Assembly: GCA_019058365.1 (NCBI GenBank)
Contig: JAHPZE010000003.1
Span: 96,001 to 160,000 of the forward strand
Source: Promethearchaeota archaeon
GTDB taxonomy: Archaea; Asgardarchaeota; Lokiarchaeia; Sigyniarchaeales; SOKP01
Length of the DNA stretch: 64,000 nt
Direction of reading: 5' to 3'
Shown here: positions 33,826-53,857 of the stretch, piece by piece
Numbering within the stretch: the first letter of the stretch is position 1
How the letters are laid out: every line of letters begins with the position of its first letter
Notes under the pieces: model-generated
Told to the model about the DNA's origin: nothing
What the model saw: only the letters and a program-made list of their open reading frames with translations
The model's database searches: none
Translations under genes and position numbers: made by a program

Positions 33826-34266
33826 TTATTGAGATATTAAACAAATACTACTATAATTATTCGGATGCTGTATCATATCATTGTAGGTTTCTAATATTTT
33901 CTCTTCTGATAAATCTTTAAGATCTATATTGAAAGGCCAGATACCCATGATAATATCTCCTAAATTTTTCACATTTCCAATTAAATATCCTGCTTTCTTC
34001 TCATTTGATTTATTTGTATATAAAATAACAAGATAATAATTATATGTATGATTAAATGTAGGATTTCCAATTATGAGAACTTCTTCAATATTTTGAAAAC
34101 TAATTATATGTTGATGTATTTCACTTATTTTTTTTAATTCTAAGGTAAATTTAGCGGGAATTGATATAAGCTTTTTAAATTCTAGACTTTTAAAACTTAG
34201 AGTAAGGTTTTTATGTTCAAATTGCTCGTGTGCCGTAAAGATTACTTTATATATAATAGAATCCAT
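33826..34266 (-). CDS. Hypothetical protein
   Basis: 146-aa ORF just downstream of aIF1 on the same strand. Confidence 0.6.
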   Translation of the reverse strand: MDSIIYKVIFTAHEQFEHKNLTLSFKSLEFKKLISIPAKFTLELKKISEIHQHIISFQNIEEVLIIGNPTFNHTYNYYLVILYTNKSNEKKAGYLIGNVKNLGDIIMGIWPFNIDLKDLSEEKILETYNDMIQHPNNYSSICLISQ

Positions 34267-34366: not shown

Positions 34367-34684
34367 TTATTCTTGAATAACAATATTTTCTTCAGGAAAT
34401 CCAAGATCAATCAAGAATTTTTTCAATTTAAACCGATGATCTCCTTGGAGTTCGACTTCATTATCTCTTACAGTTCCACCAGAAGCGCATTTTTTTTTTG
34501 CTTTTGTTAGAATATTCTTAAGATTTACTTCGAAATTTCCAACGAACGTGATTACAGTAACAACCCTCCCCCATTTCCTCCTAGCGTTAGAAATTATTAT
34601 TTGTTGTTCATCGGCGCTTAAACTATCACATATACATAGTTCTTTTGGAAAACTACATATAGGACAAATCTCGTCGTCTTTAAT
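34367..34684 (-). CDS. sui1: Translation initiation factor aIF1 (SUI1), 105 aa, apparent ATT start; not in ORF track
   Basis: Translated by hand: (M)KDDEICPICSFPKELCICD...RRKWGRVVT...KKKCASGGTV...ELQGDHR...LGF; GTGAT SD-like motif 8 nt upstream of ATT. Confidence 0.93.
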   Translation of the reverse strand: MKDDEICPICSFPKELCICDSLSADEQQIIISNARRKWGRVVTVITFVGNFEVNLKNILTKAKKKCASGGTVRDNEVELQGDHRFKLKKFLIDLGFPEENIVIQE

Positions 34685-35057
34685 GCTGTCTTATCACAAC
34701 CTTTATTGTTAAAACTTTTTAAAATTTAGTTCTAAAAAATAATAGAACAAAATCTTATAAAAATCTTTTTTATTTTGGAAAGAAACTTTTATAAAAACAA
34801 TACTTATTTAATTTGTTAGTTTTTTCACTGCAAATTTTTAGGATTTCAAAATTTTAAATTAAGTGTTACAGAAATTTAATGAGATAAATGAAAGTAACTA
34901 TTAATTACTAATTTCTCTCTAAATTAATTCAGTTTTCAACCTAAATTTTCTAAAATTTAGAATTGACCTTCCTAAGCAAAAAATATTTAAAGAAAAATTT
35001 TTATTATTTATCAATAAGCTTATTCTTAAAGTTAGAATATTAATGTGATAAATTAAA

Positions 35058-52078: not shown

Positions 52079-52180
52079 TGGACCTGACGGGAATTGAACC
52101 CGTGACCTCTTGAATGCAAGTCAAGCGTTGAAGGTTGGTATTAAATAGAACCTTACAATCTTCCACTGATCTACAGGCCC
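52079..52180 (-). tRNA. tRNA-Ala (TGC), 30-nt intron at 24/25 (52128-52157)
   Basis: G3-U70 pair, CTTGA-CTTGCAT-TCAAG, BHB helix GAAG/CTTC; directly downstream of 16S. Confidence 0.93.

Positions 52181-52363: not shown

Positions 52364-53857
<1,494 letters not shown>

Follow-up and report, generated by a model that had tools for sequence, protein, structure and literature searches.

The window, that is, the whole 64,000-nucleotide stretch that was analysed, carries on its minus strand a complete frame for the archaeal initiation factor aIF1 (SUI1), which runs from an ATT at 34684-34682 to a TAA at 34369-34367 and spans 105 codons plus the stop (Table 1). The gene is divergent from a gene for a small Ras-family GTPase, with a gene for a 146-residue protein on its other side, and some 50 related genomes have the same two neighbours. 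The same window holds a 23S and a 16S rRNA gene. Downstream of the 16S gene lies a tRNA-like match (52079-52180), found by Rfam and not by ARAGORN.

The identity of the product was established by profile and sequence searches. It matches the Pfam SUI1 family PF01253 (E 2.5e-18, 66.7 bits against a cut-off of 25.5) and the NCBIfam model PRK00939 (113.5 against a cut-off of 98, model positions 2-101), and phmmer aligns residues 5-103 with the solved aIF1 4MO0 (E 3.3e-26). In Pfam and NCBIfam, SUI1 families alone were matched, and no IF3 domain was found. The zinc knuckle and basic loop 1 of archaeal aIF1 are both intact; the four knuckle cysteines (Cys7, 10, 17 and 19) and Arg36 are invariant in an alignment of 20 Asgard sequences (alignment A1). 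The orthologue of a further Promethearchaeota genome (Loki_b32) shares 92% identity as well as the upstream motif, and this puts the genome analysed here among the Asgard archaea of Loki type. A SUI1 profile search of the whole genome (4.74 Mb) returned a single match, the gene at 34684-34367. Second, divergent aIF1 copies (about 63% identity) occur in two other genomes of the genus (L037 in G025 and L038 in G007), one of them with internal stops and a damaged knuckle; these may be contamination or decayed paralogues.

Existing annotations disagree on where this protein begins. NCBI records of relatives start at the ATT, write the first residue as M, give 105 residues and name the product YciH. 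The JGI calls for a near-identical strain use a downstream TTG, which yields 84 residues and loses the zinc knuckle. That TTG codon is TTA here, so a caller confined to canonical starts is left with 19 codons in the window. Many aIF1 truncations of 70-90 residues are present in the protein collection. The preliminary description had predicted that gene callers would miss the gene; this holds for canonical-start callers, which truncate or miss it, but not for the NCBI records of relatives. Callers that accept only ATG, GTG and TTG truncate or drop the core gene for aIF1 and, probably, some per cent of the genes of this lineage.

Table 1. Features of the aIF1 locus, with the rRNA genes of the window and two near-cognate-started ribosomal protein genes of the same genome.
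Feature	Position	Strand	Basis or remark
aIF1 (SUI1) CDS	34367..34684	-	SUI1 profile matches; genome's sole copy
Inferred start codon ATT	34682..34684	-	conservation; NCBI records of relatives begin here
Two in-frame stops, TGA (34696-34694) and TAA (34693-34691)	34691..34696	-	sequence; frame closed 5'
First canonical in-frame start, TTG, codon 87 of 105	34424..34426	-	would leave 19 residues
N-terminal zinc knuckle, Cys7/Cys10/Cys17/Cys19	34628..34666	-	aligned to 4MO0 N-terminus
SD-like motif AGGTTGTGAT, -18 to -9	34693..34702	-	pairs with own anti-SD
Anti-SD, 3' end of 16S rRNA gene	52365..52375	-	16S end in window
AT-rich TATA-like element, putative promoter (-30 to -23 from ATT)	34707..34714	-	conservation
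Out-of-frame 5-codon mini-ORF, GTG to TAA	34680..34697	-	stop overlaps ATT
146-residue gene 3' of aIF1	33826-34266	minus	no Pfam or NCBIfam match
23S rRNA gene	1-2215	minus	about 50 kb from the 16S gene
16S rRNA gene	52365-53856	minus	
eL21, ATA start (L180)	G000 C2:20092-20421	minus	near-cognate start
uL16/L10e, ATC start (L181)	G000 C16:472852-473490	minus	near-cognate start

The start codon and its leader

The zinc knuckle must be translated, so the start codon has to lie above it. The frame is closed by the two stops three and four codons above the ATT, with two sense codons between the TAA and the ATT, and no ATG occurs in any frame of the same strand within 373 nt upstream. The preliminary description had proposed that aIF1 starts at AUU, from an in-frame TAA three codons above the ATT and a frame lacking ATG, GTG and TTG until near its C-terminus. 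Both observations proved accurate, the first such codon being TTG at codon 87.

The proposal was borne out by comparison with relatives. Every one of the 33 unmasked genus genomes has the ATT, while none of the gene's ten other Ile columns is constant (best 30/33). Among 63 orthologues of the family, drawn from 12 genera and reaching down to about 57% identity, the homologous codon is ATT in 58, ATC in three and ATA in two (collectively ATH), with the first Cys following six or seven codons later. A look for ATG at this codon in close relatives, which would have contradicted the AUU start, found it in none of the 63. The upstream TGA is kept in 33/33 genus genomes, and an in-frame stop lies at most five codons upstream in 57/63 family orthologues. 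Five of the 63 have an in-frame GTG four codons higher, within the SD word, and retain the ATH. In related families the homologous codon is ATG, TTG, GTG or ATA, and the ATT is also present in three JGI metagenome contigs from the near-identical strain.

The SD is conserved as well. Eight nucleotides ahead of the ATT is a GTGAT (34697-34693) that is complementary to the window's own 16S 3' end, as had been noted from the letters alone; the motif turned out to be longer, AGGTTGTGAT, and its duplex with the 16S 3' end is worth -10 kcal/mol, a strength that only about 5% of ATG-started genes reach. Positions -17 to -10 are invariant in the 33 genus genomes. An SD of -5 kcal/mol or lower precedes the start ATH in 92% of family orthologues and the next Ile codon in 2%. 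In other lineages the SD words differ (AGGAG, for example) while their distance to the aIF1 start is unchanged. With its GTGA core at -13, the motif of aIF1 is spaced about 3 nt more widely than is usual in this genome (mode -10). The regions before starts in this genome are clearly enriched in SD motifs and show no TATA peak; reviews describe SD motifs as rare in Lokiarchaea. The TATA-like element upstream of aIF1 is 61-100% conserved per position, not clearly above its AT-rich flanks, and position -1 is always a pyrimidine in the genus genomes.

Several other elements near the start were considered and set aside. A second ATT at 34669, the Ile before the first Cys, was rejected as a start since it has an SD of -5 kcal/mol or lower in only 2% of orthologues and its codon varies. 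The out-of-frame mini-ORF is present in 48 of the 63 family orthologues and absent in 15, and its GTG is part of the SD; most likely it arises incidentally from the SD together with the first two codons. Like an in-frame TTG-TGA start-stop, which also lies within the SD motif, it was treated as a by-product. RNA structure near the start was not significant (z -0.83).

Taken together, the conservation, the positional homology with the ATG, TTG and GTG starts of relatives and the SD strongly support initiation at AUU, and it is very likely on these comparative grounds that translation of aIF1 begins there.

Near-cognate starts in the genome and across archaea

A near-cognate start is not peculiar to aIF1 in this genome. 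Using a codon-model scan, 115 of 3980 genes were found to have a coding signal starting well above the first canonical start. In 83 of these candidates (72%) an SD of -5 kcal/mol or lower precedes an ATT, ATA or ATC (rarely CTG or ACG), as against 27% of ATG genes; the stronger SDs of the ATH-started candidates suggest compensation. Of 19 candidates picked by hand, 15, among them eL21, uL16, an actin, a ThiF and an SDR protein, have a Pfam domain whose start lies ahead of the first canonical codon. Fitting a mixture to count the ATH genes gave an invalid result (a fraction above 1) because the SDs of the candidates are stronger than those of ATG genes, and the total is therefore given as a bound: at least about 70 of the 115 candidates are real, with a detection probability of 0.46. 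Roughly 150-250 genes (4-6% of the genome) would then begin at ATT, ATA or ATC. Since so many genes share this property, the ATT of aIF1 taken by itself is no evidence of autoregulation.

Two ribosomal proteins show by direct comparison that ATH codons act as starts in this lineage. In uL16 (L10e; ATC in 2/20 family genomes) and eL21 (ATA in 9/22), ATG, TTG, GTG, ATA and ATC interchange at codon 1 among relatives, at the same position. Other genes of the genome show similar arrangements. An actin paralogue (G000 C34:311881-313023, minus; L189, L465) has an ATT behind a strong SD, with its first canonical codon about 48 codons in and the same ATT in G024; the other member of the pair, 84% identical, starts at ATG. 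A TFB (TFIIB) gene (G000 C20:4138-5082, plus; L187) probably also starts at ATT; its first 97 codons include no canonical start. The ARAGORN listing of the genome (30 tRNAs) contains no Met or Ile tRNA gene.

The 5' regions of aIF1 genes were then compared across Asgard archaea, a check put forward with the original proposal, using one start-calling rule, lenient to canonical starts, for aIF1 and for control genes in overlapping sets of genomes. Among the 25 Asgard families scored, nine have aIF1 starts that can only be near-cognate, and four different codons are used in this way. Such starts were seen in 3/69 S27e and 2/32 Nop10 control genes; L44e has ATG in 70/87 and no near-cognate-only start by rule (one ATT by eye, L208), and aIF2-beta (n=28) has 25 ATG, three TTG and no near-cognate start. 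In a family that includes a Thorarchaeota genome (f31, Thorarchaeia-like), aIF1 starts at ATG in 0/29, with 16 GTG, 12 CTG and one ATT. ATG is avoided on aIF1 not only in f31 but also in f5, f7, f10 and f11, where the controls are mostly ATG.

Compared family by family in 19 Asgard families, the aIF1 start is weaker than those of the controls in 13, equal in three and stronger in three (sign test p 0.011, a value that overstates the significance as the families are kin), although the ribosomal-protein controls are highly expressed and therefore biased to ATG. Because the controls of the same lineages are mostly ATG, it seems to be aIF1 in particular that is selected for a weak start. Different lineages keep the weakness with different codons, as would be expected if selection acts on weakness and not on a particular sequence. 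Within the family, too, the weak start of aIF1 is conserved beyond the background of other genes (63/63 ATH, as against the labile uL16 and eL21), with the proviso that kin are not independent.

The pattern has clear limits. Plain ATG is found on aIF1 in several Asgard families (f9, f16, f18-f21), and in 53/59 of the non-Asgard archaea sampled, a biased sample of limited size, so that any loop built on the start codon is not universal. In two Hadarchaeota (L382 and L387, CTG) and one Aenigmatarchaeota (L377, ATA), a near-cognate codon behind an SD is the sole available aIF1 start.

Proposed feedback on aIF1 synthesis and competing accounts

The conserved weak starts point to, without proving, a self-limiting feedback like that of IF3 and eIF1. 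The aIF1 mRNA would be led by its SD, not leaderless, and would start at AUU in vivo. The strong SD would load the 30S subunit efficiently, so that output would be limited by acceptance of the mismatched pair between AUU and the initiator tRNA in the P site, the very step that aIF1 itself is expected to police. At high aIF1 levels, initiation on its own mRNA would be rejected; at low levels it would be let through. Such a loop would hold start-codon stringency at a set point, which would also govern the other AUU-, AUA- and AUC-started genes of the lineage.

Feedback would follow from this arrangement if the Loki protein behaves like its Sulfolobus counterpart, since a strong SD combined with AUU makes the step policed by aIF1 rate-limiting. 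In Sulfolobus, as summarised in a review, the 30S complex binds AUG and AUU mRNAs without aIF1 and AUG mRNAs only with it (PMC4705826). In Pyrococcus, aIF1 blocks full accommodation of the initiator tRNA until a proper codon is paired (PMC6237735). Binding to 30S and rejection of non-AUG codons are thus reported for the Sulfolobus and Pyrococcus factors (PMC4705826, PMC6237735) and not for the Loki protein. Both the paired controls and the report that Sulfolobus aIF1 rejects AUU strengthen the inference, and we consider negative feedback by aIF1 on its own AUU-started mRNA reasonably likely from the comparative sequence evidence.

A broader reading, in which Asgard archaea repeatedly use a near-cognate aIF1 start as a thermostat of stringency and the Loki loop sets the output of an ATH-started regulon, is offered tentatively as a possibility. 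The regulon would comprise one to a few hundred AUU-, AUA- and AUC-started genes, including those for ribosomal proteins and for an actin paralogue. GTG and TTG starts are tolerated by archaeal initiation, and aIF1 genes that begin with them may be insensitive to aIF1.

The strongest competitor of the feedback reading, though in our judgement an unlikely one, is that AUU simply keeps aIF1 low, excess being harmful, and that its weak initiation is insensitive to the aIF1 level in vivo. Fixed damping of this kind would account for both the conservation and the enrichment over controls, and the sensitivity to aIF1 has been shown in vitro only, in Sulfolobus (PMC4705826). A weak promoter or SD could, however, lower output as well, yet this gene has an SD within the top 5%, and it is consistently the codon that is weak, with four different near-cognate codons employed. 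Moreover, a Loki aIF1 that rejects AUU as the Sulfolobus factor does would produce feedback mechanically.

Less probable still is a neutral origin, in which stringency is relaxed, ATH behind a strong SD is nearly equivalent to ATG, and aIF1 is one of hundreds of genes in which such a codon became fixed by inheritance. The 115 candidates with their excess of strong SDs, the 15 of 19 with Pfam domains above the first canonical start, and the free swapping of start codons in uL16 and eL21 all fit this account. Drift, however, predicts reversions to ATG like those in the two ribosomal proteins, and aIF1 has none in 63 orthologues; the account was already weakened by the paired controls, given the avoidance of ATG in f31, f5, f7, f10 and f11.

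It is very improbable that the AUU stands on a leaderless or very short-leader transcript, with the upstream motif a promoter element or only partly an SD. The TATA-like element at -30 to -23, the constant pyrimidine at -1 and the distant GTGA core would suit such a transcript, but the bases that never vary are the ones pairing with the anti-SD, starts in this genome are preceded by enriched SD motifs and not by a TATA peak, and other lineages carry different SD words at the same distance. Finally, a sequencing error hiding a true ATG, a pseudogene, or frameshifting (discussed for Sulfolobus aIF1 in PMC8211752), splicing or editing from an upstream start can be dismissed almost entirely: a near-cognate ATH, never ATG, in 63 independent genomes makes an assembly error very unlikely, the ATT recurs in the metagenome contigs, the gene is the sole copy with its motifs intact, and no ATG occurs in any frame over the 373 nt upstream.

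Comparison with known systems

In a literature search of incomplete coverage, no report of a near-cognate start or of autoregulation was found for any archaeal aIF1. A 2020 review of archaeal initiation mentions neither autoregulation nor AUU, and in a 2026 Asgard review aIF1 appears solely as the homologue of the eukaryotic factor. Feedback on stringency is established in bacteria (IF3) and in eukaryotes (eIF1), and an archaeal case would fill the third domain.

Among archaea, the full-length aIF1 orthologues of Methanocaldococcus, Pyrococcus and Sulfolobus (4MO0, 5ZCY; PMC6237735) have the same zinc knuckle and basic loop as the protein described here, and Sulfolobus aIF1 discriminates against AUU in vitro. 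The non-Asgard archaeal aIF1 genes sampled mostly start at ATG, unlike the ATT seen here.

The closest parallel in gene design is bacterial infC, which encodes IF3 and has an AUU start with translational autocontrol (Butler et al. 1987, as described in PMC4705826). In both cases the mRNA of a start-fidelity factor itself begins with AUU, and the corresponding feedback is predicted for aIF1. The autocontrol operates in vivo for infC, whereas for aIF1 we infer it. IF3 is unrelated to the SUI1 fold (PMC4705826): the product described here is a member of the eIF1/SUI1 family and not an IF3, although in the proposed loop it works like infC. The start of infC is AUU, while aIF1 in other Asgard lineages also uses AUA, AUC or CUG.

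In eukaryotes, eIF1 (SUI1) is autoregulated through a poor AUG context (Ivanov et al. 2010, as cited in PMC6237735 and PMC4705826). Eukaryotic eIF1 and aIF1 belong to one orthologous family (PF01253) and the proposed logic is the same, but eIF1 keeps its AUG and relies on a poor Kozak context during scanning, whereas aIF1 here would use a near-cognate codon positioned by an SD. If the loop is real, an eIF1 orthologue in the closest archaeal kin of eukaryotes is regulated through an IF3-type AUU codon, which would bear on whether eIF1 autoregulation is ancestral. Should the tentative thermostat reading also hold, it would represent an archaeal counterpart, and possibly a precursor, of the eIF1-dependent control of non-AUG initiation in eukaryotes.
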